Shown here: piece by piece, positions 800 through 43,950 of the stretch
Layout: each line of letters starts with the position of its first letter
How positions within the stretch are numbered: the stretch's first letter is position 1
Assembly: GCA_965237965.1 (NCBI GenBank)
Contig: CBDEGT010000002.1
Location: forward strand, 77,496-141,495
Source: Longimicrobiales bacterium
GTDB lineage: Bacteria; Gemmatimonadota; Gemmatimonadetes; Longimicrobiales; Gaopeijiaceae
Length of the DNA: 64,000 nt
Direction of reading: 5' to 3'
The notes under the pieces: generated by a model
Database searches by the model: none
Seen by the model: only the letters and a program-made list of their open reading frames with translations
Told to the model about the DNA's origin: nothing
Position numbers and translations under genes: made by a program

Positions 800-940
800 C
801 ATCCGAGCTGGCACTCGATGCGGTAGCGCCCCTCAAGGGCCGCGTTCAGGCGGGAGACAGGATCGGGGCCATTCACCCGCTCAAGATGGGCATGGGACCC
901 ATGAACCGCGAGCAAATACCTCTCGTGGGCAGACGGGTGC
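800..940 (-). repeat. kinase-5' module, copy A (kinase promoter/SD/N-terminal codons; orphan)
   Basis: Contains ctcgatgcggtagcg..cgcgttcaggcgg, whose reverse complement encodes [13 protein letters not shown]. About 90% identical to six other copies. Confidence 0.6.
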
Positions 941-965
941 AGTTCTCGGCCCTCGGGCTTCGCGC

Positions 966-1562
966 TCAGGGTTCCCCGGGCAAGTATCGTCGGGCGATTT
1001 CGAACAGCTCGTTCAACCCGAGCGTCGCGAGCCAGCCCTGCAGGGTCGCGACGTCCAACGTGTCGCCGCTGATCCGAAGCATCACGGCGATGTCGCGCAG
1101 ATGCCGGTCCGACTCGGAGGTTCGGTAGTACTCGAGCTTGCGCAGAATTACATACTCGAGCGGCGCCACCCAGATGCCCAGGTCGCCGATCTGCATGCGC
1201 CTGCGGTGACCGAAGGCCCAGGCGTGCAGTGGGGTGTCTCCGGCCAAATAGACGTCCGCCCTCAGGGCCGTATCGCGATGGATGATGTTGAAGTGGCCAC
1301 CCTCGGGTCGAGCGGCCTCCTCCCGCATCACATCGAGCGGCGGCACATAGAACGCCTCACCGTCGAACAATGATGCTAGCCGGGCAGCATCCGGCGGATC
1401 CAGCACGAGCACGATGTCGATGTCACGCGTGAAGCGGGGCTCTCCGTAGATCACCGAAGCGACCCCTCCGGTGATCATGTAGGGGATCGCCGTGCTCTCG
1501 AGGGGCCGGATGAAGAGCCCGGTCAGGTCAGGGGCAATCACCGCCCACCAGGACCCGCGCAC
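966..1562 (-). CDS. Pol-beta-superfamily nucleotidyltransferase, AbiEii-like (putative toxin/abortive-infection NTase)
   Basis: Motif TGGVASVIYGEPRFTRDIDIVLV matches the G[GS]..R.S.D[IL]D signature of the AbiEii/DUF1814 NTase. 198 aa. Overlaps the upstream small ORF by 35 bp. Confidence 0.5.
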   Translation of the reverse strand: MRGSWWAVIAPDLTGLFIRPLESTAIPYMITGGVASVIYGEPRFTRDIDIVLVLDPPDAARLASLFDGEAFYVPPLDVMREEAARPEGGHFNIIHRDTALRADVYLAGDTPLHAWAFGHRRRMQIGDLGIWVAPLEYVILRKLEYYRTSESDRHLRDIAVMLRISGDTLDVATLQGWLATLGLNELFEIARRYLPGEP

Positions 1563-1767
1563 GGGCTCGTACCTCGTCCTCCGATAGATCTGGCCAACGA
1601 GCCCGCAGGCCGGCCGCTTTGAGCTCGTACGCCTGACGGATCAAGGAGCCCATCACCGCCAGTTTCTGCGCCGGCTTCATCCGCCGCAGGAGTTCGGTCT
1701 CCTTGTCCGTCATGGTCATGGACCGACTCTCCGGAAAGGGACCGTCTTGGGCAAGGCCCGTTCGCAC
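1528..1767 (-). CDS. small helical protein upstream of and overlapping the NTase gene; candidate cognate antitoxin-like partner (likely start MTMTDKE.. at ~1719)
   Basis: 64-79 aa ORF, same strand, 3' end overlaps the NTase start. No recognisable domain. Confidence 0.35.
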   Translation of the reverse strand: MRTGLAQDGPFPESRSMTMTDKETELLRRMKPAQKLAVMGSLIRQAYELKAAGLRARWPDLSEDEVRARARVLVGGDCP

Positions 1768-1986
1768 GTGCGGCTCGGTGGTGCAGTGGGCCGGGTGACG
1801 AGGTCGGGCACGGCACCTGGCTCAGAACGGGGCCAGCCGGCCGACGATCAGTATCCCGTGTCCAGGGGAGCACCCGCAATGGCCGGGGGGGCGGCTGGGC
1901 TGCAAGAGGTCTCCTCGCTAAGATGTTCACAGAGGACCTCAAGATCGGGACCCGAAGCCCCCCATGGCCGGCTATGTAGATGCTAG

Positions 1987-3189
1987 GGAAGCTCTGAGCA
2001 AGGCCCTTCTGGGGGCGGTGCGAGACGGAGGGAGCCGGTTTCAGCGGTCTTGGGGGCGATGACGGGCTGAAAACGCGCCCAACCGGCATGTTCTGGCCGA
2101 TGATCCCCTCGTTGCGCCCCGCGTGGGCGGATGTTTCCCGCGCCGGCCGCTCACGCCGTCGAATAGCGGCCCGCCACAAGCAGGTTCGCGAAGCCCAGGA
2201 GCAGCGCGATCCGTTCCATGTTCTTGGCCAGCCCGCGGTAGCGAACCTTCCGGTAACCGAAGCGGCGCTTCACATACAGGAACGGGTGCTCCACCTTTGC
2301 CCGCACCGAGGCCTTGTCCCGCTCGCGCAGCCACCGCGCCCCGCCCTGCTCCAGGAGCCGCCGCCGCCCCGGTCTCATCGCCACATGCCACTGCACCGGA
2401 CGGCCTCCCGTGTCCACCCACTTCTCGATCCCCCGGTAGCCCGCGTCCGCCCACACCTCCTCCTCGCCGCCGTGAAGCAACGCCCCCGCCTCCCGAAGAT
2501 CGTGCGTGTTCGCCGGCGTCGCCCGCACGCCATGCACCAGTCCCGTCTCCGCGTCCACCCCGATGTGCGCCTTCATCCCGAAGTGCCACTCGTTGCCCTT
2601 CCTCGTCTGATGCATCTCCGGATCCCGCGCCCCCTCCCGGTTCTTCGTCGATGACGGCGCCGCGATGATGCTCGCGTCCACGATCGTCCCCGCCCGCACC
2701 CGGTAGCCCCGCTCCGCCAGGTGCGCGTTGATCTCCTCGAACAAACCACGCCCCAGCCTGTGCCGCTCCAGCAGGTGCCGAAAGTTCAGAATCGTCGTCT
2801 CGTCCGGCAGCGGACCCGTCAAACGCAGCCCCGCGAACCGCCGCACCGACTCGATCTCGTACAGCATGTCCTCCATCCCCGGGTCGCTCAGGTTGTAGAA
2901 CAGCTGCACGCAGTGAATCCTCAGCATCGCCGCCAACGGGTACGGCTGCCGCCCCCGCCCCGCCTTCGGATACAACGGCCGAATCCGCGCCTCCAGACGC
3001 TCCCACGGAATCAGCGCCTCCATCCGCTCCAGAAACAGCTCCCGCCGCGTCCGCCGCTTCTTCCCCTCGTACTCCACATCCGCGAACGTCACCTGCTCCA
3101 TCGTCCGCCTCCCCGATCGTCCCGCTCAGCCCTTGAACTCCCGCCCCGTAAATCTAATGTCCCAGGGACCGACTTATTCAGAGTATTCC
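1987..3189 (-). mobile_element. IS5-family insertion sequence 'IS5-A' copy 1 (~1.2 kb). Imperfect terminal IRs GGAAGCTCTGAGCAAG / GGAATACTCTGAATAAG, flanked by TAG
   Basis: Terminal inverted repeats found at both ends. An identical copy lies at 25361..27774. Flanks are ..gcTAG|IS|TAGgcg. Confidence 0.8.
2151..3101 (-). CDS. IS5 family DDE transposase
   Basis: 316 aa, ..LAAMLRIHCVQLFYNLSDPGMEDMLYE..IVDASIIAAPSSTKN..KGNEWHFGMKAHIGVD.. is typical IS5/IS1182-clade transposase. Identical to ORF 26751..27686 except the last residues. Confidence 0.85.
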   Translation of the reverse strand: MEQVTFADVEYEGKKRRTRRELFLERMEALIPWERLEARIRPLYPKAGRGRQPYPLAAMLRIHCVQLFYNLSDPGMEDMLYEIESVRRFAGLRLTGPLPDETTILNFRHLLERHRLGRGLFEEINAHLAERGYRVRAGTIVDASIIAAPSSTKNREGARDPEMHQTRKGNEWHFGMKAHIGVDAETGLVHGVRATPANTHDLREAGALLHGGEEEVWADAGYRGIEKWVDTGGRPVQWHVAMRPGRRRLLEQGGARWLRERDKASVRAKVEHPFLYVKRRFGYRKVRYRGLAKNMERIALLLGFANLLVAGRYSTA

Positions 3190-3542
3190 TAGGCGAAGGT
3201 GATGGATTAACGCATGCATACGCTCGCGCGCCGGCTTCTCATCTCTCTCGTTCGCTCGCACCCTTCGGGAAACGGGGGGCGGCGTGGCGTCGACCGCCCG
3301 ACCTACCAGCCAGAACGTCGTAGCGCGCGCCCGCGAGGATATGCGGCCTCAGAGCCCCCCACGGACTTAGAAAGGCGGGCCGCGGCTTTGAGGCTGCACT
3401 AGATCGGCCTTCGCCGCGGCCGTCCCCTACGTAGCCTTCCCACCGCGAGTACGTAGCAGCGCGTAGATCACCCAGAAGGCCCACCCCGCATCTTCCCGTC
3501 TAGGTGGTCGATCGAGGATCGGAGCGAACCGAGGGGAGATCG

Positions 3543-11004: not shown

Positions 11005-13432
<2,428 letters not shown>

Positions 13433-13761
13433 GACCCCATCCTCTCAAGAGGTGGAGTCTCCGGCAATCCCGGGGCGATTCAGTCCAAGCGCCTAAGATG
13501 CGCGCTAGACCACTATATCGCGAATAAATCCTTCTAGGGATGGACTAGGAGGACGATCACCACGCCTCTAGGCAGCTCCTTCCTTGGACGGCGCAAGTCT
13601 ACGCCATGCTCCGAGGTCTACCGATCCGTTCCCCACAGTAGGTGGCTCGTGCTCACCGGACTCCTGCAGTTCAATGAAGTTGCGGAGGGCCGACTCACGA
13701 ATACGCCACGAGCGAGCACACGCGAGAAGAGCCCGTGCCAGGTCAAGGGGCCTGTCCGAGA

Positions 13762-15789
13762 TTAGAACGAACTGCGGCACTCCGTACCAGTGAGCTCCAC
13801 AACCTTTGTCCTCCGCAAGTCTTTCAGAACATAGCCAACGGCTACTATGACCCCTAAACCTCCCACGAGGAAGGAAGGGTGAAAGGCTGAAGCCGCCGCC
13901 ACAAACAGCAGGAGCCGGCCACTACCCGAAAGGGGACGAAGCGCATGCCCCTCCAGCGCCGCAGCGAACGCGGAAAGGGCCACCATAGCCATGACTCCCT
14001 TTCCGATCACCAGAAATGCCGGGCCACCAAGTACGATCTCCGGATGCACGACCATCAGCAAGGGAATCAGATAGAGACCCTTCGCATACTTCCATGCGTG
14101 AAGACCGGTTCTCATGGGATCGGATCCAGCCACACCGGCAGCCGCGTAAGCGGCTAAACAGACAGGAGGAGTCACGTTTGAGTCCTGAGAGAACCAGAAG
14201 ACAACCAGGTGAGCAGTGAGGACTGGGAGTCCGAACTCATTCACAAGAGCTGGACCGGCGAGGACGATCAGGACGATATAGCTGGCAGTAACCGGAAGCC
14301 CCATCCCCAGCACCAGGCTGGCAAGGAGGAGAAGAATGAGGGCCAGGAGTAGGTTGCCCTGAGAAAAAGAGAGCATGACGGCAGAGAAATTGAGGCCCAA
14401 GCCGGTCAGTCCAACGATACCGACGATGATGCCTGCGACCGCACATGCCAAGCTGACAGGGAGGGCATTTCGGCAAGCAAGCACGAACCCGTCCACAACC
14501 CGCACGATCCCACCCTTGAGCCACTCGTACGGGGACTGTAGCCTTAGTCTGCCCGGTCCCTGTTCCAGATCCTCCACCCGCATGATCCGGTCCCAAGTGG
14601 CGCGCCCACCAGCCAGCGCGACAATGGCCAGGCAAGATAGGAATCCGACTCGGGCCACAGATAGGTCCATGAGGAGGGCTCCGATGAGCACTACCAGGGA
14701 AAAAAAGTAGTGCCATCCCTTCGCCATCGTGGCTCTGAAACTGGGGAGCTCCGAGGCGGGAATCCCCTGAAGACCTCTCGCTACCGCTACCAGATGCACG
14801 AAGACGAACACCGTCCCCATGTAAAGAATGGCGGGAAGCAAACCTGCCCTGATGATCTCCAGGTAGGGTAGCCCGGTGTATTCAGCAATGAGGAAGGCTC
14901 CAGCTCCCATGATGGGTGGGAGGATTTGACCTCCAGTGCTTGCAGCTGCCTCGATCCCCCCAGCCTCCTCTGGACGATACCCAACCCTCTTCATGAGTGG
15001 GATAGTGAAGGCCCCGCTGGTCACTACATTCGCGATCGCGCTTCCGGAGACAGAACCCATGGCGGCAGAGGCCACAACCGCCGCTTTAGCGGGCCCCCCC
15101 GACTGCCTCCCCGTCAGGGCATAGGCTAAATCCATGAAAAATTGCCCAGCCCCCGTGACCTCCAGGAGCGCACCGAAGAGGATGAAGATGAAGACGAATG
15201 TGGCAGCGACTCCCAAGGGGATCCCGTAGATACCTTCCTGACCCAAGTAGAGTTGGCCCACAATCCGGCCGGTTCCATACCCCCCATGCCGGAGAACACC
15301 TGGAAGGAAGGGGCCTAGGTACGCGTAGCAGACAAAGAGAACGGCGATGGATGAAATCGCCCAACCCAGCACTCGGCGCGTCGCCTCCAATAGGGTGATT
15401 ACTGCCGCTCCACCGACGACGACATCGAGGGTGCTGGGAGTGCCAGCTCTACCCACGATGGCGTCCAGATTTAGGGTAAGATAGAAGGCAGTGGCAGCGG
15501 CGGTGGCGATGAGGACCACGTCCATGGACCAGGCCAGACCACGTCGGAGGCCCCTCTCATGGCCGCTCCTCCACGGGAAGAGGAGGAACGCCAGGATCTC
15601 GACTAGCGCGAGATGAAACCCCCTCTGATAGAAGAGTCCGACCGGTCGGATTCCGGCCGCAGACAGTTGGAATAGGGCAAGCGCAATCGCGAGGATGACG
15701 AAAGCCCCGGCGGCGAAGGCGGGCAGGCCCAGCTCCCGTTGCGGAATCCTACTGACGGAGGCTGGATACAATGGCCGACTGGCCTTCAA
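13762..15789 (-). CDS. TRAP transporter fused permease (TAXI-type, DctQM-like fusion)
   Basis: 675-aa polytopic membrane protein with the TRAP fused-permease pattern, directly downstream of the TAXI solute-binding-protein gene. Confidence 0.8.
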   Translation of the reverse strand: MKASRPLYPASVSRIPQRELGLPAFAAGAFVILAIALALFQLSAAGIRPVGLFYQRGFHLALVEILAFLLFPWRSGHERGLRRGLAWSMDVVLIATAAATAFYLTLNLDAIVGRAGTPSTLDVVVGGAAVITLLEATRRVLGWAISSIAVLFVCYAYLGPFLPGVLRHGGYGTGRIVGQLYLGQEGIYGIPLGVAATFVFIFILFGALLEVTGAGQFFMDLAYALTGRQSGGPAKAAVVASAAMGSVSGSAIANVVTSGAFTIPLMKRVGYRPEEAGGIEAAASTGGQILPPIMGAGAFLIAEYTGLPYLEIIRAGLLPAILYMGTVFVFVHLVAVARGLQGIPASELPSFRATMAKGWHYFFSLVVLIGALLMDLSVARVGFLSCLAIVALAGGRATWDRIMRVEDLEQGPGRLRLQSPYEWLKGGIVRVVDGFVLACRNALPVSLACAVAGIIVGIVGLTGLGLNFSAVMLSFSQGNLLLALILLLLASLVLGMGLPVTASYIVLIVLAGPALVNEFGLPVLTAHLVVFWFSQDSNVTPPVCLAAYAAAGVAGSDPMRTGLHAWKYAKGLYLIPLLMVVHPEIVLGGPAFLVIGKGVMAMVALSAFAAALEGHALRPLSGSGRLLLFVAAASAFHPSFLVGGLGVIVAVGYVLKDLRRTKVVELTGTECRSSF

Positions 15790-15808
15790 CTCCAGATCCT
15801 CAGAGTCC

Positions 15809-16864
15809 TCACTGGGAGACGATCAGACGCTCTGGCACGTCGTGGCCACTGTCCCGCAGGTACCTAACGGCGCCAGGATGCAATGGGATGGGTGACGCTG
15901 AGAGCGTGTACTCCGCCGAGATCTGACGCGCCACTGGGTGCACGCCTTCGAGCTCCTCAAGCGCCTCCAGTAACTCCTGGATCAACGAGTACGCAAGCTC
16001 CTCGGGCATGTCGGCCGATACCACAAGGAGATTCGGAGTGCTCAGCGTATGAACTTGCTGCTCCTGTCCACGGTACGCCCCGGCAGGGACCACGTCCGGA
16101 CGAACAGTCGGATCGACCGCTTCGGTGCGCTCCACCTCTTCCGCTCCGAGAGGAACAAGGTGGACCGTACGCGCTGTGGCAAGATCCATCAGGGAGCTTG
16201 TTGGAGGGCCGGCGCTCCAGAATCCGGCATCCACATTCCCATCGCGGATCGCGTTCGCGGTCTCATTGAAGTTGAGGCGCTGAGGCTCGAAGTCATCGTA
16301 TCCGATCCCGTTCGCCTCCAGGAGAGTCCGAGCGGCAACCTCCGTCCCACTACCCGGGGCTCCCACGGAAACCCTTCGACCTACGAGGTCATAGAGCGTG
16401 CGGACACCGGTTTCCTCTAGGGTCGCCAAATGAAGGATGTTCGGGTAAAGGGCAACCAGAGCAAGAATTTGTCCGGACTGCCCTCCTTCAAAAGAACCCC
16501 TGGCGGTATGAGCCTCAAGGGCATTAGTACCCATGGAGAACGCCACCTCCACTTGCCCCGCCATCAGGAGGCTCAAGTTTTCGACCGAGCCTCCCGTAAC
16601 TTCCGCCACCACGACCTGGTCCGGCAGGCCTCGGCTCCAGATCTCAGCAATGGAACCCCCCAGAACGTAGTAGACTCCTCCTGTTCCTGCGGTGGCTAGG
16701 GCCAGGATTTCAGGGCCGTCTCCAGGTGAGCAACGAACGAGGCTGAAGACCGAAACGAGCACGGCACCCAGCATCGCCACTGCTCTTCCCCAACCACCGC
16801 TCAGGCTTCCTTGCGTCTTCGGGTGAGCCACTTCTTCCACTGTCCTTGAAACTCCTCTGCCCAT
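15809..16864 (-). CDS. TAXI family TRAP transporter solute-binding subunit
   Basis: ..LATAGTGGVYYVLGGSIAEIW.. is the TAXI hallmark. Signal peptide present. SD taggaggtgggg upstream. Confidence 0.85.
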   Translation of the reverse strand: MGRGVSRTVEEVAHPKTQGSLSGGWGRAVAMLGAVLVSVFSLVRCSPGDGPEILALATAGTGGVYYVLGGSIAEIWSRGLPDQVVVAEVTGGSVENLSLLMAGQVEVAFSMGTNALEAHTARGSFEGGQSGQILALVALYPNILHLATLEETGVRTLYDLVGRRVSVGAPGSGTEVAARTLLEANGIGYDDFEPQRLNFNETANAIRDGNVDAGFWSAGPPTSSLMDLATARTVHLVPLGAEEVERTEAVDPTVRPDVVPAGAYRGQEQQVHTLSTPNLLVVSADMPEELAYSLIQELLEALEELEGVHPVARQISAEYTLSASPIPLHPGAVRYLRDSGHDVPERLIVSQ

Positions 16865-16914
16865 ATCACCCCACCTCCTACCGGACCTGTGCCAGTGACC
16901 GGCCCCCCCCCGAT

Positions 16915-16985
16915 CTTACGCTCGATGCGGTAGCGGCCTACAAGGGCTGCGTTCAGGCGGGTGACGGGATCGGTCACCAGTTGCC
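16915..16985 (-). repeat. kinase-5' module, copy B (truncated; directly upstream of TAXI gene start)
   Basis: Reverse strand encodes [23 protein letters not shown], followed by a G9 run and the TAXI SD/ATG. Confidence 0.6.
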
Positions 16986-17014
16986 CACCGCGTCGGCTGG
17001 GTCGACAGCCTCCC

Positions 17015-17490
17015 CTACGGCGCTACCACTGGCGTCGGCGCCACGAGGCTCATCCTGATCCTCCACGAACCGTCCGCGTCTTTCGTCAACGCGTTCATGT
17101 AGTTCCCGGACGCCTTCACCGGCTCACCGTCCGGGGGCGTCACGTCGACCTCGTACGTTCCCGACGCCACTGCTGATTTTCCATCCTCGGCAATGAACGT
17201 CTCATCAGGTTGAATGGCGAGAGACTGGCTCCCACCGTCGAAACCCGCCTGGATTGCTATCGCGATGGCGTCCCTGTCGCGGTCGGGAGCTTGTCCAGGG
17301 AACATGCGGACCGCCTCCATCGTGTATAGCTCGGCGAGTCCTCCTGAGTCCTTGTTCCCGAAGAGTTGAACGTAGGTATCACCCAGAGCGGTGATCGCCG
17401 TCCTTTCGGCGTTAAGGTCGACCTGAGGCCCCGATGGAGCGCAGGTCGCGAGCAGCACTGAAAGGGACAGGGCCAGGACACGGATGCTCA
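17015..17490 (-). CDS. lipoprotein with SnoaL/NTF2-like (DUF4440-like) fold
   Basis: GTG start VSIRVLALSLSVLLATCAPS lipobox. Small alpha+beta protein pattern. Low-confidence domain call. Confidence 0.45.
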
Positions 17491-17739
17491 CGGAATCCCT
17501 CCTGTGGTCGGCAGGGTCACGCAGCGCGTCGGCTGTGGCTGAGCGAGTATAGCGCGCGGATCTCGTCGCCGCATGCTGGAGTCTGGGGCCTGCGCCGGGC
17601 GGGCGGGATGGCAAGGCCAGGCGGCGGATGCCATCAGGCCCCCGCCGGCTCGTGGGAGGACCTCAGGTGTTGGGCGACGGAGACCTCGCCGGGACCCGAG
17701 GTGGTCGCCGGGCGTGGGGGGTTGGCGGCTGGTTGGGAG

Positions 17740-17890
17740 GGCGCTCGATGCGGTAGCGGCCTTCTAGGGCCGCGTTCAGGCGGGTGACGGGATCGGGCTT
17801 GTTCACCTGCCCAAGATGCCGGTCAGGGCGGTAAACCGCGAGAAAGCTCCGATACACGAGGGCGAGCGAAGGATCACGGCCAGCAAGGTG
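17740..17890 (-). repeat. kinase-5' module, copy C (includes ~80 bp of conserved upstream promoter-like sequence)
   Basis: Encodes ..[20 protein letters not shown]. Upstream part ..caagatgccggtcagggcggtaaaccgcgagaaagc..ggatcacggccagca is shared with copies E and F. Confidence 0.6.
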
Positions 17891-18050
17891 GGCAGTGAGC
17901 CGGACGGCTTGGCTTTACGGAGCTGGAAACAGAGTGTACTTGGGGTCCTAGCCCGCCAAAAAAGAACAGCGCCCCCCAGCACCGAGCGCCCTACTCCTCT
18001 CGGATGATCAACTGAGTCGTCGGCTTGGTCACTTCCCCACCCTCCGTTCC

Positions 18051-27948: not shown

Positions 27949-28242
27949 TCAGTGCGGCGCGAACGCGCTCAGGACGGGGTCTTGAGCTGGATTGTTGGGA
28001 TAGTTGTGCAGCGGCAGGATGTGCGGGTGCTGCAGGTTCGCGGTCGTCTTGATCTCGGCCAGGAACCGCTCGGCCCCGACTACAGCGGCTAGCTCAGGTT
28101 TCAGAACCTTGAGCGCGACCTTGCGCTCGTGCCGGAGGTCGTCGGCCAGGTAGACCGTCGCCATCCCGCCCTCGCCGAGCTGGCGCTCGATGCGGTAGCG
28201 GCCTTCGAGAGCCGCGTTCAGGCGGTCAGGCACATCGCTCAT
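27949..28242 (-). pseudogene. Ser/Thr protein kinase N-terminal fragment (97 codons; kinase-5' module copy D plus ~60 further kinase codons)
   Basis: [74 protein letters not shown] then divergence and stop. Contains the kinase Gly-loop and VAIK Lys. Confidence 0.7.
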
Positions 28243-31149: not shown

Positions 31150-31245
31150 GGGCGGGAGTCGAACCCGCAAGGGCCGAAGCCCGGGGGATTTTGAGTCTCA
31201 CTCCATCCACCTTCCACTGCCTCTAACGGCAGCACCGGCGAGCGC
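31150..31245 (-). other. tRNA-like 3' end (T-arm GCGGG-TTCGACT-CCCGC plus acceptor 3' strand); full cloverleaf not resolved by eye
   Basis: Reverse complement ..gggcttcggccc(ttg)gcgggttcgactcccgccctcggcA. 5' half gives only a 6/7 acceptor pairing and no clean anticodon arm. Confidence 0.25.
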
Positions 31246-31356
31246 TCTGACCCCAATCGCGCATCGGTGACAGCCTATGTAGCCGGAAGGTCTGCGGTGG
31301 AACATGGGCGCAAAATGGGATCACTTGTGGCGGTCGGTCACACCGTCATCGCCATC

Positions 31357-31440
31357 AGGTCGGCACCAGCCGCTTCAGCTCCTCGAAGAAGTTCTGGACG
31401 AGGATGACGGTGACGCGGTCTTCGGCCGATCCACATCAGC
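31357..31440 (-). repeat. kinase-3' module, copy 1 (last ~24 codons ..VILVQNFFEELKRLVPT* plus stop), immediately downstream of floA
   Basis: 45 of 47 bp identical to copy 2 at 40296..40385, including synonymous positions. Confidence 0.55.
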
Positions 31441-31546
31441 CAGGTATCCGAAACCGTTCATCCTAGAGGCTCCGATTGTTCTCCTCCTCACCGCCCGAGA
31501 TCGACTCACGCATGGAGGTGTCCGACTGGACGTCGCCGTAACGCAT

Positions 31547-32455
31547 TTAGTTCATCACCTCGAGGTTCCCGCCCCGGAAGGCCTCGGCGATCGCCAGCGG
31601 AACCTTGGCCTCGGCCTCGACCAGATCGGCCCGCTTCTCCTGTACCTTGGCGAGGTTCTCCTGCTCCAGCGCGACGGCCATCGCACGCCGCTCCTCGGCG
31701 CGCGCCTGGGCGACCCGCTTGTCGGCCTCGGCCTGATCGGTCTGCAGCTCGGCGCCGATGTTCTTGCCGACGTCGATGTCAGCGATGTCGATGGAGAGGA
31801 TCTCGAACGCCGTACCGGCGTCCAGACCGCGTGCGAGCACGGTCTTGGAGATGTTGTCGGGGTTCTCGAGGACGGCCTTGTGGGAATCCGCGGAGCCGAT
31901 GTTCGACACGATGCCCTCGCCCACCCGTGCCAGGACCGTCTCCTCGCCTGCGCCTCCCACCAGTCGATTGATGTTCACCCGCACCGTGACGCGCGCGATC
32001 GCGATCAGCTGGATGCCGTCGCGCGCCATGGCCGTTACGCGCGGAGTCGTGATCACCTTCGGGGTGACCGACACCTGGACGGCCTCGAACACATCGCGCC
32101 CGGCAAGGTCGATAGCGGCCGCCTGCTGGAAGGACAGCTCGATATTCGCCTTGTCCGCGCTGATCAGCGCGTGCACCACGCGATCGACCGCACCGCCGGC
32201 GAGGTAGTGCGCCTCGAGGTCCCCGATGTCGAGCACGATTCCCGCCTTGGTCGCCCAGATCAGGGGACGCACCACGGCGGGCGGGTTCACCTTGCGGAGC
32301 CGCATTCCCACCAGGTACCCAATGCCGACCTTCGCGCCGGCGGAGATCGCCTCGACCCACAAGCGCACCGGAATCGCCCAAAGGATCAGGCTTACGAGGA
32401 TGAAAGCGCCGACCAACGTGATCAGGCTGGTCGAAAAGAAGAGCTCGTCAGTCAT
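31547..32455 (-). CDS. floA: flotillin-like protein FloA (UPF0365/YqfA family)
   Basis: [56 protein letters not shown].. is the characteristic FloA N-terminus and SPFH body. Confidence 0.8.
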
Positions 32456-32582
32456 GGGCAGCCCTCGATGGAATCGTGGGTGATTGGGGAGCGTACACTC
32501 CGGCGGAGATCGGTCGTAGGGGACAGGCCCGGCCTCCACTATAACGCATCGCCGCGGCCACTGGAGCAGTACCGGCCAGGTA

Positions 32583-32712
32583 GACGGTCGCCATCCCACC
32601 CTCACCGAGCTGGCGCTCGATGCGGTAGCGACCTTCGAGGGCCGCGTTCAGGCGGGTGACGGGATCGGGCTGGTTCACCCGATCAAGATGCCGGTCAGGG
32701 CGGTAAACCTAT
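32583..32712 (-). repeat. kinase-5' module, copy E, directly upstream of floA (fragment ORF stop overlaps floA ATG: ATGACTGA)
   Basis: Encodes [36 protein letters not shown].. then out-of-family sequence. Confidence 0.6.
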
Positions 32713-32787
32713 GGCCATGTCTGGTGCCATGGGGGTCCTCCTCCTTGTGACAAGTGCAGGGTGTCTTGCAGTGGGGGGTCAGGTCCA

Positions 32788-33408
32788 TCACCGGCGGGCT
32801 CGTATCGGAATCAGAACCCGCGTGCCCGCCCATTCCACGACCAACTCCACGGCGTCCACGGCCAGACTCCTGAAGGAAAAGGTCAGCAACTCGACCGGCT
32901 CCTCCGTGGGCTCGACGGGCACGATCCCCGAGCCGATGTCCTGCTCCCGCACCAGGTCATCGATAGGGATGCCCCATCGCTCTACTTCCGCATTGACGAT
33001 GACCTGCCATTCCTCCCTCGACGGGATTACATAGAGCGAGTAGGAGCCGGACTCCAGCGGGACCCCGGCGATCTCCACCGGGACCGGAACGCTGATAGAG
33101 GTGGCTTCGTTGGCTCCGAGTCGCCACGGCTCTCCGTAGGGCACCACCCGGCCCATGATTGGTCGGCCAACCGTCCGGGGGCGGCTGTAGCATACCTTGA
33201 TCTCCTCACCGTCCAGTCGGACGGTGGCCGAATCGAAAGGGCTGATTCGGATGTCAAGATCAGAGGGATCGTCTCGAATCCAGCAGGCAATATCCACGGG
33301 GCCTACCACCTGCTGGCCTTCGGCTAGGCCGTGACCAGCAAGCTGCAGAACACAACCGAGGACAACGCCTCTGAGACGTGGCACACCCACAGTAAATCGC
33401 ATCTTCAA
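32788..33408 (-). CDS. DUF2911-like secreted protein
   Basis: Signal peptide. ..PWRLGANEATSISV..GSYSLYVIPSREEWQVIVNAEVERWG.. matches the DUF2911 pattern. Confidence 0.5.
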   Translation of the reverse strand: MKMRFTVGVPRLRGVVLGCVLQLAGHGLAEGQQVVGPVDIACWIRDDPSDLDIRISPFDSATVRLDGEEIKVCYSRPRTVGRPIMGRVVPYGEPWRLGANEATSISVPVPVEIAGVPLESGSYSLYVIPSREEWQVIVNAEVERWGIPIDDLVREQDIGSGIVPVEPTEEPVELLTFSFRSLAVDAVELVVEWAGTRVLIPIRARR

Positions 33409-33502
33409 ATCACTCTCAAGGGGCCGGGTGGCGCGTTTTGCGAGTCAAGCCGAGGTTCACGTCCGTGGCATCTGCAGCTCATCGAAGCACGCTGATCCAT
33501 AC

Positions 33503-33685
33503 CGTCGCCATCCCGCCCTCACCGAGCTGGCGCTCGATGCGGTAGCGACCTTCAAGGGCCGCGTTCAGGCGGGTGATGGGATCTGGGCGGTTCACCCGAT
33601 CAAGATGCAGGGCAGGACAGCGAACCGCGAGAAAGCCCCTATATACAGGGGGGTGAGCGGAGGATCACGGCCAGCAGGCAGGCAG
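33503..33685 (-). repeat. kinase-5' module, copy F (longest; includes conserved upstream region), upstream of DUF2911 gene
   Basis: ..ccatcccgccctcaccgagctggcgctcgatgcggtagcgacc..ggatcacggccagcaggc. Confidence 0.6.
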
Positions 33686-33989
33686 TCTCTCTCGCCCCGG
33701 ATCACCTACCCCGTGGTTCCGCGCGCGCGTTACGGTTTGGGTGTGTGGTTGGGTTGTTCGCAGCCTCATGGTTCTGGCCTCGGTCGTAATCACCGTCATA
33801 TTCGTCGTCGCATGGCTCTGGGGTTGGTACGCGTCACTCGCTTCGTAACCAACTCCGGATTGTGGGGCGTGCGCGGCCCCGAGACGCACGGTCATATATT
33901 GAATCTTCTGCCCATGTCGGGCTCGGCCCCGACCAGCACGGGATCTAGTCCCAGTGACGCACCGTCTTCAACGTGGAGCACACTGAGCC

Positions 33990-35925
33990 ATGTCGAGCTT
34001 CTTGGCGCATGAGATCCGCGTACTCGTCGCCGCCCTCGGCATCGTCCTCTGCACGTCCGACGCTGTCGCTGCGCAGACCAACGGACGGGACGGCAGCGCG
34101 CCCTCCGCGCCCGCCGTCCGGATCGGTGACGAGCCGGTCATCGACGGCTCCCTCTCGGACCCGGCCTGGGAGGGGCTTCCCGTACTGACCGACTTCGTCC
34201 AGCGCATCCCGCGGGACGGGGAACCGGCCACACTGAGAACTGAGGTGCGGATCGGGCACGACGAAGCGGCGCTCTACGTGGGCGTGCGCGCGCACGACGA
34301 CCAGCCGTCTCTGATCGTCCCGGGCGAGGCGATCCGAGATTACGACCTCGCCCAGTCCGACACGGTCATGCTGATCTTCGACACGTACAAGGATGGAGTG
34401 AACGGCTTCGCGTTCGGCACGAACCCGGCCGGAATCGAGTACGATGGCCAGGTGGTGGACCAGGGCTCAGGAACCGGCGGGCTCCGCGGCTCGCTCGGAA
34501 CCGGGGGCGGTGGTGGCGCTGGGCGCCAGCAGGGCGGCTCGGGCGGTGGCTTCAACCTGAATTGGGACGGCAACTGGGAGGTGGCGACCGGCCGCGACGC
34601 GCAGGGCTGGAGCGCCGAATTCCGGATCCCCTTTTCGACGCTGCGCTACCGCGCCGGTGGACGGCAGGACTGGGGCCTCAACGTGCTGCGACGAGTACGC
34701 CGGGTGAATGAGGAATCGTCTTGGTCGGCGATCCCGCGCGAGTTCGACTTCAACCGCGTGAGCGAGGCGGGCACCCTGACCGGCCTCGAGCCGCCGGCAG
34801 TCCGGTCGGTCCAGCTCACGCCGTACGTACTCGGCTCCTCCGCGCGGAACTATGCGCTCGACGACCCCGGGTTCGACGAGAACGGCGAGGTGGGCGGCGA
34901 CGCCAAGGTGCAGATCACGCAGGGCCTCACCCTCGACCTCACTTACAACACCGATTTCGCGCAGGTTGAGGTGGACGACGTCCAGACCAACCTGACACGC
35001 TTCAGCATCCAGTTCCCGGAGAAGCGCCCGTTCTTCCTCGAGAACTCCGGGATGTTCTCCTTGGGGGGCCGCGGGGCAGACCTCTTCTTCAGCCGCCGCA
35101 TCGGGATCGCGCGCAACCTGAACCGGGTGCCCATACAGGGGGGTGGCCGGCTCTCGGGCAAGACGGCCGGGCTCAACGTCGGCCTGCTCCACATCCGCAC
35201 CCAGGAGCTGGACAGCGTCCAGAGCGGGCAAGCCTACTCTGTGGTTCGGCTCGCGCGCGAGCTGGGCAATCGTACCAGCATCGGAGGCGCGTTCCTGCAG
35301 CGGGACGGGCTGGAGGAGACTGACGACTACAACCGCACCTACGCTGTGGACGGGCAGCTGGGGATCGGCACCGCGTGGAACCTCAACGCCCTCGTGGCCC
35401 GCACCGAGACGCCTGGAATGGAAGGCCGGGACTACATGTTCAATGCAGGCGGCAGCTACAGCAGCCGCAACCTGAATCTCAACGGCAGCTTCAGCGAAGT
35501 CGGTGAGGACTTCAATCCCGAGGTTGGCTTCCTTCAGCGCTCCGGCTATCGATCGTTTGGCGGACGCGCGGTGATCTTCATCCGTCCGACGGATCTGTTC
35601 GGGCTACGTGAGCTCAGGCCGCACGTCAGGTTCAGCACCACGCGCGATCTCGAGACCGGTTTCGAGGAAACCTCGCAGGTCCACCTCGACCACCACTTCG
35701 AGTGGGACTCGGGGATGTTCTTCAGCCCCGCCTTCAACTGGAATCGCGAGGGGCTCGAGGAAGCTTTCTCAATCTCCGACAGCGTGATCGTGGCGCCAGG
35801 CACCTACGACGGCTGGGAGATGAGTTGGCATTTCTACACGAACCCATCGGCACCAGTCTCATTCGAGGCCCGCTTCACCAACGGCGCCTTCCTCTCGGGA
35901 AACCGGCGCGGATACTCTCGTCCAG
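33990..35925 (+). pseudogene. DUF5916/CBM9-like exported protein (carbohydrate-binding family 9 N-domain + beta-barrel), C-terminus truncated by IS110-like remnant
   Basis: Signal peptide. ..DGSLSDPAWEGLPVLTDFVQRIPRDGEPAT..NWDGNWEVATGRDAQGWSAEFRIPFSTLRY.. ORF runs out of family into the IS110-like sequence at ~35925. Confidence 0.55.
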
Positions 35926-36180
35926 GCCGCCTGGCACTACAGGATGCGACCCGCCGTGGGCAAGCAGCTCGAGAAGCGACAGCGCGGCCAACCGCCCGCC
36001 GTCATCGCCCATGCCTGGAAGTCCCAGCACCGGCTCCACAAGCTCTACCACCGCATCGCGGTCCGGAAATCGGCCCAGGTCGCTGTCGTCGCCGTCGCCC
36101 GCGAACTCGTCGGCTTCATGTGGGCCGTCATGCGTGAGCTCGAAATCGAACAGGCGACCGCGCTCGACGCGGCCGCGTAA
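35922..36180 (+). mobile_element. IS110-family 3'-terminal remnant (encodes ..AHAWKSQHRLHKLYHRIAVRKSAQVAVVAVARELVGFMWAVMRELEIEQATALDAAA*)
   Basis: C-terminal IS110 transposase signature. About 90% nucleotide identity to 11030..11200. Confidence 0.55.
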
Positions 36181-40221: not shown

Positions 40222-40295
40222 CTAGTAGGATCATCGTCGAAGCTGTCCTCGGGTCCTCTTCGCTATTTGAAACCCTTGCGCCAGCCCTTTCATAT

Positions 40296-40385
40296 TAGTT
40301 CGGCACCAGCCGCTTCAGCTCCTCGAAGAAGTTCTGGACGAGGACGAGCGGCTGCTCTGGTTCCGAACCGCGGGCGTTCCACCCG
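40296..40385 (-). repeat. kinase-3' module, copy 2 (..EPEQPLVLVQNFFEELKRLVPN*), downstream of NHL lipoprotein gene
   Basis: 45 of 47 bp identical to copy 1. Confidence 0.55.
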
Positions 40386-41775: not shown

Positions 41776-42076
41776 GATGCCTTTCCTTCCTTAGCAGGGA
41801 GCCTCAATGGACAGCCCACATGTGAGCACGATCCGGTGTCACCTGGCGATGAGCCGGCCAGCCCTCCCCTTCCCGTGAGACGTTCGGTGTTCCCCGGGGG
41901 GGTGGGAACCAGGTTAGCAGAGGCGTTTCCTAGGTGTCAACAAGAGTTCCCCCAAAAAGTGCCAAGCGAGCTAAAGAGGGGGCGATTCCCCGCTAGTGTA
42001 TAACGGCTTCGCTGGTTCATCACCCTAAGCAGGTTCACTAGCTATGTGAAGAACCCCCCTAGATTCCGACACTTCA

Positions 42077-42140
42077 GCGAAACCCCGGAAGCGGCGCCTT
42101 CAGCTCCTCGAAGAAGTTCAGGACGACGATCATCCCCTTG
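42077..42140 (-). repeat. kinase-3' module, copy 3 (diverged: ..MIVVLNFFEELKAPLPGFR*), downstream of metalloprotease gene
   Basis: Core cttcagctcctcgaagaagttc is shared with copies 1 and 2. Confidence 0.5.
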
Positions 42141-42185
42141 GCGCCCCCAGCCCCCTTCTATCTATTGGACACGGGCTCGTGCGTG

Positions 42186-43865
42186 CTACGGTTCCTTACG
42201 GACACGCACACGATATCCCGTGCTGAGGTCCTCAAGCACCTCGACGGTCAGGCCGATCGCCGGATCCTGGAAGGTAGATACCCGTTCCTCTCCGACATTG
42301 AACGCGACTCGATTGGCCGGCTCACAATGGTTGACAATGTCAGGTTGAGCCTGCTGAATCCAAATCGGCACGTCACCGCTCTCTACGTTGCCGTCCACGG
42401 AATAGACCAACACGCCTTCTTGGCAGATCCGCGCGTCAAAGCCGATGCGCTTCCGCGCCTCTATCACGTAAGCTGTCGTTTCGCTCGTTGGGATCACAAT
42501 CGCCTGAAACTCGTCGGGTTGCTCGAACGTGAACACGGTCCTCTCGAACTCACCGAAGGTGATGCAATCGACGTCCTCGTCCAGCACCCATCCTATCTTC
42601 CACTTATGCCAGACCAAGAAGTGGGCAAGGGGGGTTGCAAATGGGAGGCTCATCGGGTCCCAGGCGCCGACTGGCGACATGTTCTCCCAAAAGTCTTCGG
42701 GGTTCGCGCCACCAAGGTCGGGGAGACCGAAGAGGTGCCCGATTTCGTGCACCAGGATGTTGTAGCTGTCAACATCGGTGGCGCCATGCCGGACTTCCAC
42801 TCCGTCGACGGACACGCCGGCGCCAGACTGCTCAGCGTATGAGCTGGTAAATGAGTTGGTAGCGTTCGCGAGTGAGTTCTTTGGGACGACGATGTGGACC
42901 AGGTCGAACTGCGTGAAGTCCACTGAGGCATCTGCCGCATGGATGGCGTCAATTACCCATTCCCAATGGGTACGCACTTCATAGTACTCCATGGGGTGAG
43001 GCAGACGAATCCAGTTCGGAGTTGATTCCGCGGTATTCACCATGCGGCCGTTCGAAGCTTCCGAAAACCACTCCTCGGCCAGCGTCCAAATCTCATCGAA
43101 GACCAGTTCCGTCGAATCAGTTCCCGGAAAGTCAGGGAAGTCCACGAAGAGAACGAGTGATCGCACCACGCCAACGGGACGGAAATACTTCTCCGGCCGA
43201 TGCACAAAGGCCTCCTGTTTGATCCCCTCGATCTTGCAGGTCTCGATGGGAACCGGGTCCGAGACGGCTATGAGGCGGGAACCGACCACACCATCCGTCG
43301 TGGCGAAAACGTCGGCGGCCCCGTAGGCAATCCCTGTTACAACACCCGTTGGGCTGACTTCGACGATCTGCCCATCCGAGGATTCCCATGTGATCGACTT
43401 GTCCTCAACCCGTGTTCCCCCTAGGTCCAACGCCTCAGCAGTTAGCTGGGCGGTTTGCCCTGGCGGGATCATGACCCCCGCGTTGGATCCGATGGATACG
43501 GAGGCGACCATCTGCTCGACCGTGATGGACGCGGACCCGCTCACCGGACCTGCGGTGGCAGTAATCGTGGTGGTCCCGTTTCCGATGGTCTTGACGAGGC
43601 CGCTTGAGGCATCCACGGTCGCAACGCCGACGTTCGATGACGACCAGGCGAATGACTGACCCGAGATCGGGGTCCCTGAAGCGTCTTTCGCGACCGCGCT
43701 GAATTGTTGATCGACGCCGACGGATGCCAAGGTCTGCTCAGACGGTGAAACTTCGATAGTGGCGACTACTGGCTGCGTTGGGCCGGACGGTCCTGCGGGT
43801 TCCTTATCGCCCCCACAGGCACCGACCAGGAGGACAGACAGAGAGACGGACAACACTGTCGCCAT
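42186..43865 (-). CDS. M6-like zinc metalloprotease lipoprotein with Big_2 (bacterial Ig-like) domains. Its ATG and the 26 in-frame codons upstream are supplied by kinase-5' module copy G
   Basis: MATVLSVSLSVLLVGACGG lipobox, Ig-like ..TATIEVSPSEQTLASVG..TITATAG.. repeats, and zincin motif ILVHEIGHLFGLPDLGG. Confidence 0.65.
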   Translation of the reverse strand: MATVLSVSLSVLLVGACGGDKEPAGPSGPTQPVVATIEVSPSEQTLASVGVDQQFSAVAKDASGTPISGQSFAWSSSNVGVATVDASSGLVKTIGNGTTTITATAGPVSGSASITVEQMVASVSIGSNAGVMIPPGQTAQLTAEALDLGGTRVEDKSITWESSDGQIVEVSPTGVVTGIAYGAADVFATTDGVVGSRLIAVSDPVPIETCKIEGIKQEAFVHRPEKYFRPVGVVRSLVLFVDFPDFPGTDSTELVFDEIWTLAEEWFSEASNGRMVNTAESTPNWIRLPHPMEYYEVRTHWEWVIDAIHAADASVDFTQFDLVHIVVPKNSLANATNSFTSSYAEQSGAGVSVDGVEVRHGATDVDSYNILVHEIGHLFGLPDLGGANPEDFWENMSPVGAWDPMSLPFATPLAHFLVWHKWKIGWVLDEDVDCITFGEFERTVFTFEQPDEFQAIVIPTSETTAYVIEARKRIGFDARICQEGVLVYSVDGNVESGDVPIWIQQAQPDIVNHCEPANRVAFNVGEERVSTFQDPAIGLTVEVLEDLSTGYRVRVRKEP

Positions 43866-43950
43866 CCCGCCCTCACCGAGCTGGCGCTCGATGCGGTAGC
43901 GGCCTGACAGGGCTGCGTTCAGGCGGGTGACGGAGTCAGGCATTAGTTGC
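43856..43950 (-). repeat. kinase-5' module, copy G (fused in frame to the metalloprotease gene)
   Basis: [30 protein letters not shown].. The kinase GGMATV supplies the lipoprotein start. Confidence 0.6.

Follow-up and report, generated by a model that had tools for sequence, protein, structure and literature searches.

Copies of a kinase 5′-end module are repeated along one strand of the 64,000-nt stretch of Longimicrobiales DNA analysed here (the window), and they represent pieces of kinase genes rather than kinases. The explanation towards which we lean, with modest confidence, is that they are stubs, or orphan termini, left by Hanks-type Ser/Thr kinases of ~890 aa (a Pkinase domain with a TolB/PD40-like propeller) whose family is hyper-expanded and turns over fast, and that these stubs are decaying, persist as recombination substrates and have in some cases probably been co-opted as promoter or coupling leaders. 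Kinase bodies would have been lost through IS insertion (shown for copies 1 and 8), deletion or replacement by other genes, leaving both ends of the gene, whose DNA sequences are nearly identical among the many paralogues; recombination would partly homogenise the stubs and let them persist. Where an intact promoter-like box is followed by a co-directional gene, as for copy 3 (DUF4440) and copy 6 (DUF2911-FloA), the cargo is probably served by a leaderless promoter within the stub and by a short uORF that can couple translation to it; such a role, confined to a subset, would be incidental and not the reason for the existence of the family.

Copies of the module in the window

All seven copies of the original prediction were recovered on the minus strand by blastn of the window against itself (pairwise identity 84-95% over 44-160 nt) and by a profile search, which added an eighth on the same strand; the translations are kinase N-termini, as had been described. 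The 60-mer proposed as a search probe has two matches at ≤3 mismatches in the window, versus none in shuffled sequences. Copy 1 (803..924; blastn, profile positions 10-133) comprises the promoter-like box, a GTG and ~21 kinase codons, and is cut at 803 by the end of an IS256/Mutator-family element (Mutator-family transposase at 1-753, plus strand, Pfam); the IS end at 600-803 is present twice in another locus (L017), with both alignments ending at 803. The additional copy 8 (13481..13538; nhmmer, profile positions 8-65) is promoter-only, consisting of the box, a TTG and two codons, and is cut by an IS3 end at 13484, with uncut homologues of its box in L152 (13328-13376) and L104 (9368-9527). 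Copy 2 (16904..16976) has ~19 kinase codons without a box, directly upstream of the TAXI-DctM genes, and copy 3 (17740..17896) has the full box, a GTG and ~18 codons upstream of a DUF4440 gene, and shares ~110 nt of sequence upstream of the box.

Copy 4 (28003..28242; 28143-28242 in the profile search) is an 80-codon remnant of a kinase N-lobe in ORF 27949-28242, located between IS5-like elements. It is 90-96% identical to intact kinases over aa 1-80 (tblastn), with homology ending about codon 80, at 28003, and in L104 and L132 the same 5′ flank leads into a kinase truncated at about codon 30. As predicted, it is the only copy that runs on into kinase sequence, being the only one to reach the Pfam Pkinase threshold (1.6e-9, profile positions 1-68). 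Copy 5 (32573..32709) has the -10-like CATCTT, a GTG and 35 codons and lacks the CTCGCG element; its ORF (32448-32678) stops 5 nt inside the FloA start (ATGACTGA), and the junction with FloA and its leader is also present in L104 and L152, with a different promoter type in each. Copy 6 (33501..33686) has the full box, a GTG and 31 codons upstream of a DUF2911 gene and is conserved in strain L157, and in copy 7 (43855..43943) an ATG and 29 kinase codons run in frame into a Big_2/metalloprotease gene at its lipoprotein signal, without a box and with upstream sequence resembling an operon-internal kinase junction. Within the window the whole box is found only in copies 1, 3, 6 and 8, and is absent from copies 2, 4 and 7.

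Module architecture and the parent kinase family

The module consists of a promoter-like box of rigid spacing without a Shine-Dalgarno (SD) sequence (CTCGCG-N18-CATCTT-N6-ATG/GTG; spacing identical and SD absent in 83 of 92 distinct boxes), followed by the first kinase codons, ~20-80 of them in the window and about 0-65 in related loci. The box is present in about half of the 5′ stubs. Conservation has its 5′ edge just upstream of the CTCGCG element, several unrelated classes of sequence adjoin the module on its 5′ side, and the stubs originate from both promoter-bearing and operon-internal kinases. The parents are the Pkinase/beta-propeller kinases of ~890 aa of the Longimicrobiales/Gemmatimonadota: intact relatives are 875-903 aa long and contain the catalytic motifs HRD and DFG, and the L152 gene at 5084-7768 matches both Pkinase and PD40/Tricorn in Pfam. 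Of the marks of a Hanks-type catalytic domain (PF00069: Gly-rich loop, VAIK Lys, HRD and DFG), the HRD and DFG motifs are absent throughout from the translations of the window copies, compared with these intact kinases.

The original prediction had taken the identity between copies as a sign of a DNA-level repeat, which independent paralogues would not keep. This argument is overstated, as the exact pattern of a 40-nt core is also found in many different Gemmatimonadota MAGs within intact kinases of ~890 aa. Outside this pattern the synonymous variation in the intact kinases looks ordinary, and amino acid conservation together with a strong GC3 codon bias therefore explains much of the identity. 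Recombination or homogenisation can nonetheless be seen directly, in mosaic stubs and in promoters swapped between strains (see below).

Orphan 3′ ends and the missing kinase interior

The window also contains three orphan kinase 3′ ends, overlooked in the original prediction, all on the minus strand and ending in VQNFFEELKRLVPN and a stop codon. The first (31344..31415, VILVQNFFEELKRLVPT and stop) lies ~130 nt past the FloA stop and is also found after FloA in L159 and L160, the second (40294..40357, LVLVQNFFEELKRLVPN and stop) follows an NHL-repeat gene, and the third (42071..42130, IVVLNFFEELKAPLPGFR and stop) lies ~55 nt past the protease stop; the latter two are kept in L157. Such 3′ stubs are as short as their 5′ counterparts (the last ~15-60 kinase codons), and a search with the kinase C-terminal motif gave 28 matches, 14 orphan and 12 intact, with none in the reversed-sequence control. 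Possible degenerate 3′ remnants were seen after DUF4440 and DctM.

A tblastn search with 14 intact kinases detected no remnant of the kinase domain or propeller in the 64-kb window. Kinases merely split by an insertion were considered and rejected, as the rest of the kinase is absent beyond the cargo in the window; the far side of the IS at copy 1 lies outside it. In three related loci (L079, L104, L132) a 3′ stub and a 5′ stub adjoin, with both kinase bodies gone. We also noted that the arrangements copy 7-protease-3′ stub and copy 5-FloA-3′ stub, which count against decay, suggest a replaced kinase interior more than they do two independent deletions.

Distribution in public genomes and metagenomes

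We scanned public genomes and metagenomes for the 40-nt core, which gave 109 copies with enough downstream sequence to assess. Short stubs make up 65 of these, while 26 continue as kinase and 18 are partial, and a further ~24 copies are cut even earlier than the assessable stubs. Copies in related metagenomes are therefore orphaned more often than intact and do not always head intact kinases; the earlier suggestion that they are scars of a very large kinase family fits the data. The coding part of the stubs is under relaxed constraint, with 104 of 699 residues in codons 13-26 never seen in intact kinases, versus 7 of 462 in a leave-one-out comparison of the intact kinases.

As with other pseudogene remnants left by IS insertion and deletion, copies 1 and 8 are IS-cut, kinases are frameshifted or partly deleted in related loci (L011, L019, L030), and the copy 4-type kinase is shortened to different extents in different loci. 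In contrast to simple pseudogene decay, only the two termini survive, they outnumber intact genes, and they are conserved at orthologous sites. Moreover, in 78% of the truncated copies the break lies no more than ~200 nt from the start, and since random deletion predicts neither such clustering nor the survival of termini only, an extra factor is needed; candidates would be selection against longer truncated kinases, gene conversion confined to the conserved ends, or a directed mechanism.

Cargo genes and strain comparisons

The genes behind the stubs were confirmed by Pfam as named in the original prediction, and the differing families bear out that most copies adjoin unrelated genes. All on the minus strand, they encode a TAXI-type TRAP solute-binding protein with a fused DctM permease behind copy 2 (13762..16864, TAXI/NMT1_3 part 15809-16864), a DUF4440/SnoaL-like protein between copies 3 and 2 (17015..17614), FloA (31547..32455), flanked by copy 5 and a 3′ stub and lacking its native NfeD partner, a DUF2911 protein between copies 6 and 5 (32788..33408), and a Big_2/zinc-metalloprotease-like lipoprotein (42186..43857, with the ORF extending to 43943 to include copy 7), which has copy 7 on one side and a 3′ stub on the other. 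The cargo families are diverse, and copies 6-DUF2911-5 and 3-DUF4440-2 form single-gene units of 0.8-0.9 kb. Distant orthologous TAXI loci (L153, L154) are stub-free, as is a native NfeD-FloA locus (L158); hence at least these cargo genes moved into kinase territory, instead of kinases dying beside resident genes. This relocation of TAXI and FloA from stub-free loci is an observation that counts against decay.

Independent assemblies and samples show the same stub/cargo junctions (L157, L152, L104, L155, L001, L159/L160), and stubs are kept at orthologous sites across ~20% nucleotide divergence, a persistence which is long for neutral debris and likewise counts against decay. The junction is fixed, whereas the 5′ half of the stub, the promoter and the upstream context are exchanged, and strains lose synteny where the stub begins. 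Window block 16976-13495 is 99.8% identical to L152 9888-13370, with homology ending at the first codon of copy 2, and the two 99.8%-identical strains carry the copy 2-TAXI-DctM block in differing surroundings. Similarly, the copy 5/FloA-leader junction is common to the window and L104 with a differing promoter, and the copy 7/protease junction is shared with L155 at 95.5% identity, whereas the 5′ half of the stub is ~14% diverged and the promoter differs, the L155 counterpart carrying a box. Between L026 and L119 the module is ~93-95% identical, versus 80% for the adjacent hydrolase gene, and conservation stops at the kinase-homology boundary. Being dispersed repeats of ~60-180 bp, the stubs recombine with other members of the family.

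Promoter or leader function

A portable promoter or leader, kept and spread because it drives expression from a leaderless promoter with a short uORF that loads ribosomes and couples to the next gene, had been suggested earlier and is in our view a minority possibility as the general explanation. Its basis is the rigid, SD-free architecture with a 5′ conservation edge just upstream of CTCGCG, the direct fusion of the box to non-kinase ORFs (a cyclase in L020, an ORF in L127), and the stronger conservation of the L026/L119 module than of its neighbouring gene. Gaps to co-directional genes are short, with such genes having their own SD, and downstream proteins more often have hydrophobic N-termini by a crude measure (18/36 vs 45/174, p=0.008). 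Stub stop codons overlap the next start as (A/G)TGA in 14 of 65 stub frames compared with 8 of 129 control frames (p=0.003), an about threefold enrichment which lends some support to a leader role that may apply in a subset.

The suggestion is only partly borne out: copies 2, 4 and 7 have no box, copy 5 lacks CTCGCG and copies 1 and 8 are disrupted by IS elements. Of the genes that follow a stub, 45 are co-directional and 16 convergent, as among ordinary neighbours and irrespective of the box, so that about a quarter of the stubs face the 3′ end of a gene. The box is also without a match to the σ70 consensus, orphan 3′ ends are equally common and incapable of a promoter role, and conservation runs through the coding part of the stub to the exact homology boundary, an extent that a promoter function would not need. 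Putative mobile promoters have been described as sequences of 50-100 nt or more with at least 80% identity upstream of non-homologous genes within a genome, some shared across genera, and were read as reused regulatory DNA (Matus-Garcia, Nijveen and van Passel 2012, PMC3488235). The copies likewise share at least 80% identity over 50-100 nt upstream of non-homologous genes, but as far as that description goes they differ in including the first codons of one gene family, in their variable 3′ truncation and in having matching orphan 3′ ends. The convergent quarter, the variety of truncations and the orphan 3′ ends together indicate that promoter reuse is not the whole story.

Recombination cassettes and other explanations

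Somewhat less probable still is that the stubs delimit recombination-driven cassettes, with the kinase 3′-end/5′-end junction as a homology arm and the bounded kinase bodies or cargo exchanged, deleted and copied between loci and strains by RecA-type recombination or gap repair. If this were true, the DNA-conserved junctions of a giant tandem kinase family in the Longimicrobiales/Gemmatimonadota would be universal homology arms, and the system an integrase-free analogue of integrons, in which the kinase promoter and stop/start coupling would express any installed cassette. Several of the above arrangements agree with it: cargo between a 5′ and a 3′ stub (copies 5 and 7, and perhaps the degenerate remnants after DUF4440 and DctM), adjoining 3′/5′ stub pairs, single-gene units, the differing contexts of the copy 2 block and the relocated TAXI and FloA genes, to which can be added same-strand tandem stubs (L014, L064, L081, L084) and tandem kinase arrays with overlapping stop and start codons (L019, L015, L006). 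However, homologous exchange alone regenerates full units, leaving the first formation of arm/cargo junctions and the shortness of the arms unexplained, arm lengths vary continuously, and no two kinase loci were seen to carry an identical cargo unit. Furthermore, L152 has an intact kinase-tannase-3′ stub layout with the 5′ stub absent, the same protease is followed by different 3′ stubs in L155 and the window, and the window is an island rich in IS elements and integrases which also contains fragments of other genes (AcrB, HlyD, OEP, peptidase M16).

Integron cassette arrays have same-orientation repeats (attC) between single-gene units with diverse accessory cargo and an IntI integrase. The stubs share the orientation, the ~0.8-0.9-kb single-gene units and the diversity of cargo, but are kinase coding ends with imprecise inner boundaries and not attC-like imperfect palindromes, and exchange would be homologous, not site-specific. 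Rhs/CdiA orphan toxin modules and Neisseria pilS cassettes are short family-homologous patches by variable DNA that serve as substrates for homologous recombination; what is swapped there are in-frame coding tips belonging to one gene. The stubs are also conserved family-gene patches next to variable DNA, but here the variable DNA comprises entire unrelated genes, mostly out of frame, and it is the outermost 5′ and 3′ ends that are conserved.

A miniature mobile element or an att/attC-like recombinase site is very improbable. Many copies are intergenic, the core contains a near-palindrome (GCGGCC-CTCGAA-GGCCGC, seen directly in the sequence), and the window encodes two tyrosine integrases (45712-46896 and 47918-49072; Arm-DNA-bind_3, Phage_int_M and Phage_integrase domains, a P4-like architecture). 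Against this, the 3′ end is unique to each copy, differing at all 71 junctions without a shared tail, the 5′ ends belong to unrelated classes, the rest of the kinase expected after integration is missing beyond the cargo, and L153 has a similar integrase and zero stubs. The stubs resemble REP, BIME and MITE repeats in being short, abundant, mostly intergenic and rearrangement-promoting, but are of clear coding origin and lack constant ends, and terminal inverted repeats or target duplications were not seen by eye.

A structured cis-regulatory RNA, a riboswitch- or attenuator-like leader common to kinases and other genes, is slightly less credible again: local hairpins can be drawn and copy 5 folds with z=-3.3, but the remaining copies do not fold better than shuffled sequences, and a candidate hairpin around CATCTT lacks covariation (paired fraction 0.667 vs 0.645 on average in shuffles; G-C is replaced by A-C). 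In the window the Rfam gathering score is reached by ALIL alone, the IS3 frameshift element, with nothing at E≤1 in 31200-33800, and as the truncation points vary a common RNA is not retained. Finally, although the sequence comes from a metagenome assembly and its core recurs many times, an artefact of chimeric assembly at a shared k-mer can practically be dismissed, because a repeat-induced chimera would link kinase to kinase and not to a unique gene, and identical junctions were recovered from independent samples and assemblers in the same six sets of loci listed above.

Orphan kinase ends in the window

The repeats in the window are orphan 5′ and 3′ ends of a very large family of Hanks-type kinases with propeller domains, here called 5′ stubs (a promoter-like box and/or the first codons) and 3′ stubs. 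Self-blastn of the window recovered all seven minus-strand copies of the original prediction at 84–95% identity, namely c1 (803–888), c2 (16904–16973), c3 (17740–17896), c4 (28143–28225), c5 (32573–32709), c6 (33501–33686) and c7 (43855–43934), and the 60-mer given with it had two matches in the window at ≤3 mismatches versus none in shuffled sequences. All seven copies translate to a common peptide that includes DP(V/I), and their alignment showed 50–110 nt 5′ of the GTG start to be common to c1, c3, c5 and c6, with a different 3′ point of lost similarity in each copy. Only the copy at 27949–28242 reaches a Pfam Pkinase match, as had been predicted, and its similarity to intact kinases stops at codon ~80 (28003). 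A profile search of the module added c8 (13481–13538), which consists of the upstream box and two codons only and adjoins an IS3 end at 13484, and the end of c1 is the end of an IS256/Mutator-family element at 803, an IS end present twice in L017 (L numbers denote loci from public genomes, metagenomes and related strains). Since both copies stop at IS ends, c1 and c8 are ordinary IS disruptions, and some stubs are thus IS-generated.

A 58-bp repeat (31354–31410 and 40294–40351) corresponds to the 3′ terminus conserved among the module's kinases (..VQNFFEELKRLVPN*), of which a third copy lies at 42071–42130. A tblastn search of the 64 kb with 14 intact kinases, one from a 99.8%-identical strain, found no kinase-domain or propeller fragment, and a kinase split by an inserted element was rejected for copies other than c1, as there is no kinase remainder within the window. 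The neighbouring genes named earlier (TAXI, DUF4440, FloA, DUF2911 and the Big_2/metalloprotease) were identified as the same by Pfam.

Prevalence and decay of the stubs

Public genome and metagenome contigs were scanned with a 40-nt degenerate pattern for the core of the module, which gave 30 loci in Gemmatimonadota/Longimicrobiales MAGs and at least 120 metagenome contigs. Full-length kinases with this N-terminus, whose existence elsewhere had been raised as a question, are present (875–903 aa), one from a close strain matching Pkinase and a PD40/Tricorn-type propeller, and they often stand in same-strand tandem arrays with overlapping stop and start codons (L019, L015, L006). The 109 copies with at least 600 nt downstream were sorted by blastx against 12 intact kinases; among the matches listed, kinase similarity was gone within 200 nt of the core in 65, continued in 26, and was partial or frameshifted in 18. 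Copies elsewhere hence do not always head intact kinases; had they done so, this would have spoken against the original prediction. Profile search found about 24 further copies that break off ahead of the core or within it, in some cases directly after the start codon. Truncation points spread continuously over 0 to ~65 codons, with few lying further in; ~78% of truncated copies are cut no more than ~200 nt from the start, compared with ~6% expected under uniform breakpoints along 2.7 kb. No shared 3′ tail or junction motif was found among 71 junctions. A search with the kinase C-terminal motif gave 28 matches versus none in reversed-sequence controls, 12 of them ending long ORFs and 14 being orphans. 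With orphan ends of both kinds numerous, and short copies in excess over uniform breakpoints, both termini survive preferentially, and in the sampled loci orphan termini exceed intact ones. At stub codons 13–26, 15% of amino acids are absent from all intact kinases, versus 1.5% in a leave-one-out comparison of the intact kinases; protein-level constraint is relaxed, and the stubs decay as proteins.

L009 was considered as the state before deletion of L068 and L078, and was discarded as it has the same stub before the lipoprotein gene, after its kinase. Three contigs with a Gemmatimonadota-type kinase core (L021, L023, L030) are binned as Chloroflexota, Acidimicrobiaceae and Vicinamibacteria MAGs, which is probably mis-binning, although horizontal transfer may be an alternative source of the core.

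Recombination between stubs

Independent paralogues were originally thought unable to keep ~90% nucleotide identity. This holds in part: intact kinases show no unusual third-position entropy outside the search pattern, so that amino-acid conservation and GC3 bias explain much of the identity and an extra nucleotide-level constraint on intact 5′ ends is rejected, but recombination between loci is visible as well. In the orthologous stub and hydrolase loci L026 and L119 the gene is 80% identical and the flanks are unalignable, whereas the module is ~93–95% identical up to the kinase-homology boundary. Between the window and L104, FloA and its 120-nt leader, stub junction included, are 94–96% identical, while the promoter part of the L104 stub is of a different type from that of c5 and of the same type as c8. 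Similarly, L155 has the same junction between c7 and the protease (95.5% identical), but the 5′ half of the stub has diverged by ~14%, with a promoter box in L155 and none in the window. A 3,483-bp block of c2 and TAXI-DctM is 99.8% identical in L152; it starts with codon 1 of c2, and the sequence 5′ of it is different throughout. L157 (99.7% identical to the window) retains c5, c6, c7 and the 3′ stubs, and its differences from the window lie in IS content. From these strain comparisons it follows that the junctions between stub and cargo, i.e. the unrelated gene behind the stub, are stable and inherited, that recombination with family members takes place in the outer parts of stubs, and that synteny between strains breaks at stubs.

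The leader after the c5 junction (~60–90 nt; 32484–32573) is also present in L104 (9606–9700) and L152 (14080–14149). Since the gene behind it in L152 is not FloA but a different SPFH/Band_7 gene, the leader contains a second breakpoint. About 70 bp of the protease gene (42233–42303) is absent from L157, where the blast blocks abut at 11641, and may represent a small tandem duplication or an indel.

On balance, we favour a reading of the stubs as decaying, recombining kinase termini with occasional co-option. They would persist because only these parts of the gene are similar enough to many paralogues for continued recombination or conversion, and longer kinase remnants are perhaps counter-selected. 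If so, a single family of paralogues can scatter hundreds of short substrates for recombination through a genome, and these fix where strains differ; orphan termini can then come to outnumber intact genes. For annotation, stubs are called as short "kinase" ORFs or N-terminal extensions, as in a 585-aa protease call, and they help to interpret synteny breaks in Gemmatimonadota MAGs.

The upstream box and its possible function

Among 92 distinct copies, 83 have the exact arrangement CTCGCG, 18 nt, CATCTT, 6 nt and then ATG (73) or GTG (10), even though spacings of 14–24 nt and 4–9 nt were permitted in the search. There is no Shine-Dalgarno sequence at the box, and GGAGG-type sites are present at the cargo genes. 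To judge from its geometry, we infer that the box is a −35/−10 pair from which transcription begins at the start codon and yields a leaderless mRNA, which would make it a candidate non-canonical promoter for a poorly studied phylum. In the window the whole box is found in c1, c3, c6 and c8, c5 has it without CTCGCG, and it is absent from c2, c4 and c7; the sequence 5′ of c7 and c2 resembles a tandem-kinase junction. The hexamers are not σ70-like, and 32400–33800 contains no σ70 consensus promoter. A structured RNA was rejected, as only c5 stood out among four folded copies, as was a hairpin stem around CATCTT, for which the apparent covariation failed a shuffle test in four registers, and no Rfam family matches the module, whether above the gathering score or, over 31200–33800, with E relaxed to ≤1.

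The original prediction saw a portable promoter or leader in the module, and selection for such a function is unlikely to be the main driver, although the box may well serve the downstream gene in a subset of copies. In 14/65 stubs versus 8/129 control frames the stub ORF stop shares an (A/G)TGA with the start of a long downstream ORF (p=0.003; p=0.01 without two near-duplicates), the c5 stub ORF terminates within the FloA start, and the distance to a co-directional gene is often <100 nt. Gene orientation speaks against a general promoter role: with neighbouring genes predicted by a codon-usage caller, and hence approximate, 45 genes after stubs were co-directional and 16 convergent, which is the usual proportion for neighbours. 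The ratio was the same with the box (27:10) as without it (18:6), so a preference of box-bearing stubs for co-directional genes was rejected, and the orphan 3′ ends are unable to be promoters at all. Cargo families are mixed (hydrolases, Big_2 surface proteins, beta-lactamase-fold proteins, GGT, LRR, TIR, cyclase, DinB), with a crude excess of hydrophobic N-termini in downstream proteins (18/36 vs 45/174).

Upstream of many box-bearing copies lies an ORF end, ..GFVSVIIVSALFALGLPLVLL*, which in L018, L029, L072, L109, L148 and L105 is conserved at DNA-level identity; the conserved unit may therefore include part of the upstream gene at its 3′ end, and the peptide may be a C-terminal membrane anchor or sorting tag. 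A second upstream class, a separate repeat family, has a ~70-nt inverted repeat (gaatacaCCCCGAa..cgcttagaacgcgc..TCGTGGGGtgtattc) directly 5′ of the box (L083, L098, L107, L113, L125, L038, L055, L071, L073, L088, L099, L111). In L020 (3059–3130), L075 and L106 the box or stub is directly 5′ of class III adenylate/guanylate cyclase genes (N-terminus ..RRLAAVMFTDVVGYT..), and the box may be part of a broader signalling regulon.

Origin of the cargo genes and comparison with known systems

In minus-strand order the window includes c7, protease, 3′ stub, NHL gene, 3′ stub; then c6, DUF2911, c5, FloA, 3′ stub; and then c3, DUF4440, c2, TAXI-DctM and c8, which is cut by IS3. If units of 5′ stub, cargo and 3′ stub moved as cassettes on homology arms, genes would be captured and shuffled in a new way, without the help of a dedicated recombinase; we consider this improbable. 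The TAXI-DctM loci L153 and L154 (75–81% amino-acid identity) have a conserved context without stubs and the native NfeD-FloA locus L158 is likewise free of stubs, so at least these cargo genes were relocated into kinase-rich territory; with an NfeD remnant followed by FloA and the 3′ stub of the window in L159 and L160, this took more than one step. L152 has an intact kinase, a tannase and an orphan 3′ end without a 5′ stub, and the 3′ stub after the protease differs between the window and L155, and the history was therefore not one clean mechanism. Minor explanations, even taken jointly, are very improbable. FloA itself (31547–32455) has 302 aa versus ~331 aa in relatives, and as its N-terminus matches theirs, it appears to be shortened at the C-terminus, directly 5′ of the orphan 3′ stub.

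Among known systems, patches of homology operate in a similar way in orphan toxin modules and silent pilin cassettes, although in-frame parts of one gene are swapped there. Integron arrays, which look similar, use attC and IntI, which were not identified here. A literature search found no paper on Gemmatimonadota kinase stubs, and only general ones on mobile promoters. Putative mobile promoters are the closest described category, and the copies fit their operational definition (PMC3488235); unlike the elements described there, the copies carry coding sequence, have 3′-end counterparts and often do not face a gene.

Mobile elements and other gene fragments

In other respects the window is an island rich in IS elements, with IS3 copies carrying ALIL elements, nested IS5-like elements, and IS110, IS1595, IS21 and IS30-like elements. 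Two inverted IS3-family copies (11222–13484 and 18790–20971), each with an ALIL frameshift pseudoknot (13038–13154, minus strand; 19120–19236, plus strand), are 100% identical in one half and 85% in the other, and bracket 13485–18789 (DctM, TAXI, c2, DUF4440, c3 and a peroxiredoxin) like a composite transposon. An IS5-like element is present twice (1982–3192 and 25355–27777), the second copy being interrupted at 25555–26762 by a related IS (78% identical), of which a 100%-identical inverted copy lies at 28479–29686; the kinase remnant c4 is flanked by these elements. Two P4-type tyrosine integrases (45712–46896, minus strand; 47918–49072, plus strand) and a nearby MobC/NikA-like gene (45068–45586) suggest integrative mobilisable elements; there is no tRNA gene within the window. 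Truncated efflux genes stand in a row at 21932–25355 (an AcrB of only 542 aa, HlyD_D23 and OEP fragments), and gene fragments in the island are thus not limited to kinases. The 3′ end of a DUF5916 gene is duplicated over 189 bp at 91% identity (11038–11226 and 35917–36105), adjoining the IS3/IS30-like region, and in L157 the same segment is duplicated over 319 bp.
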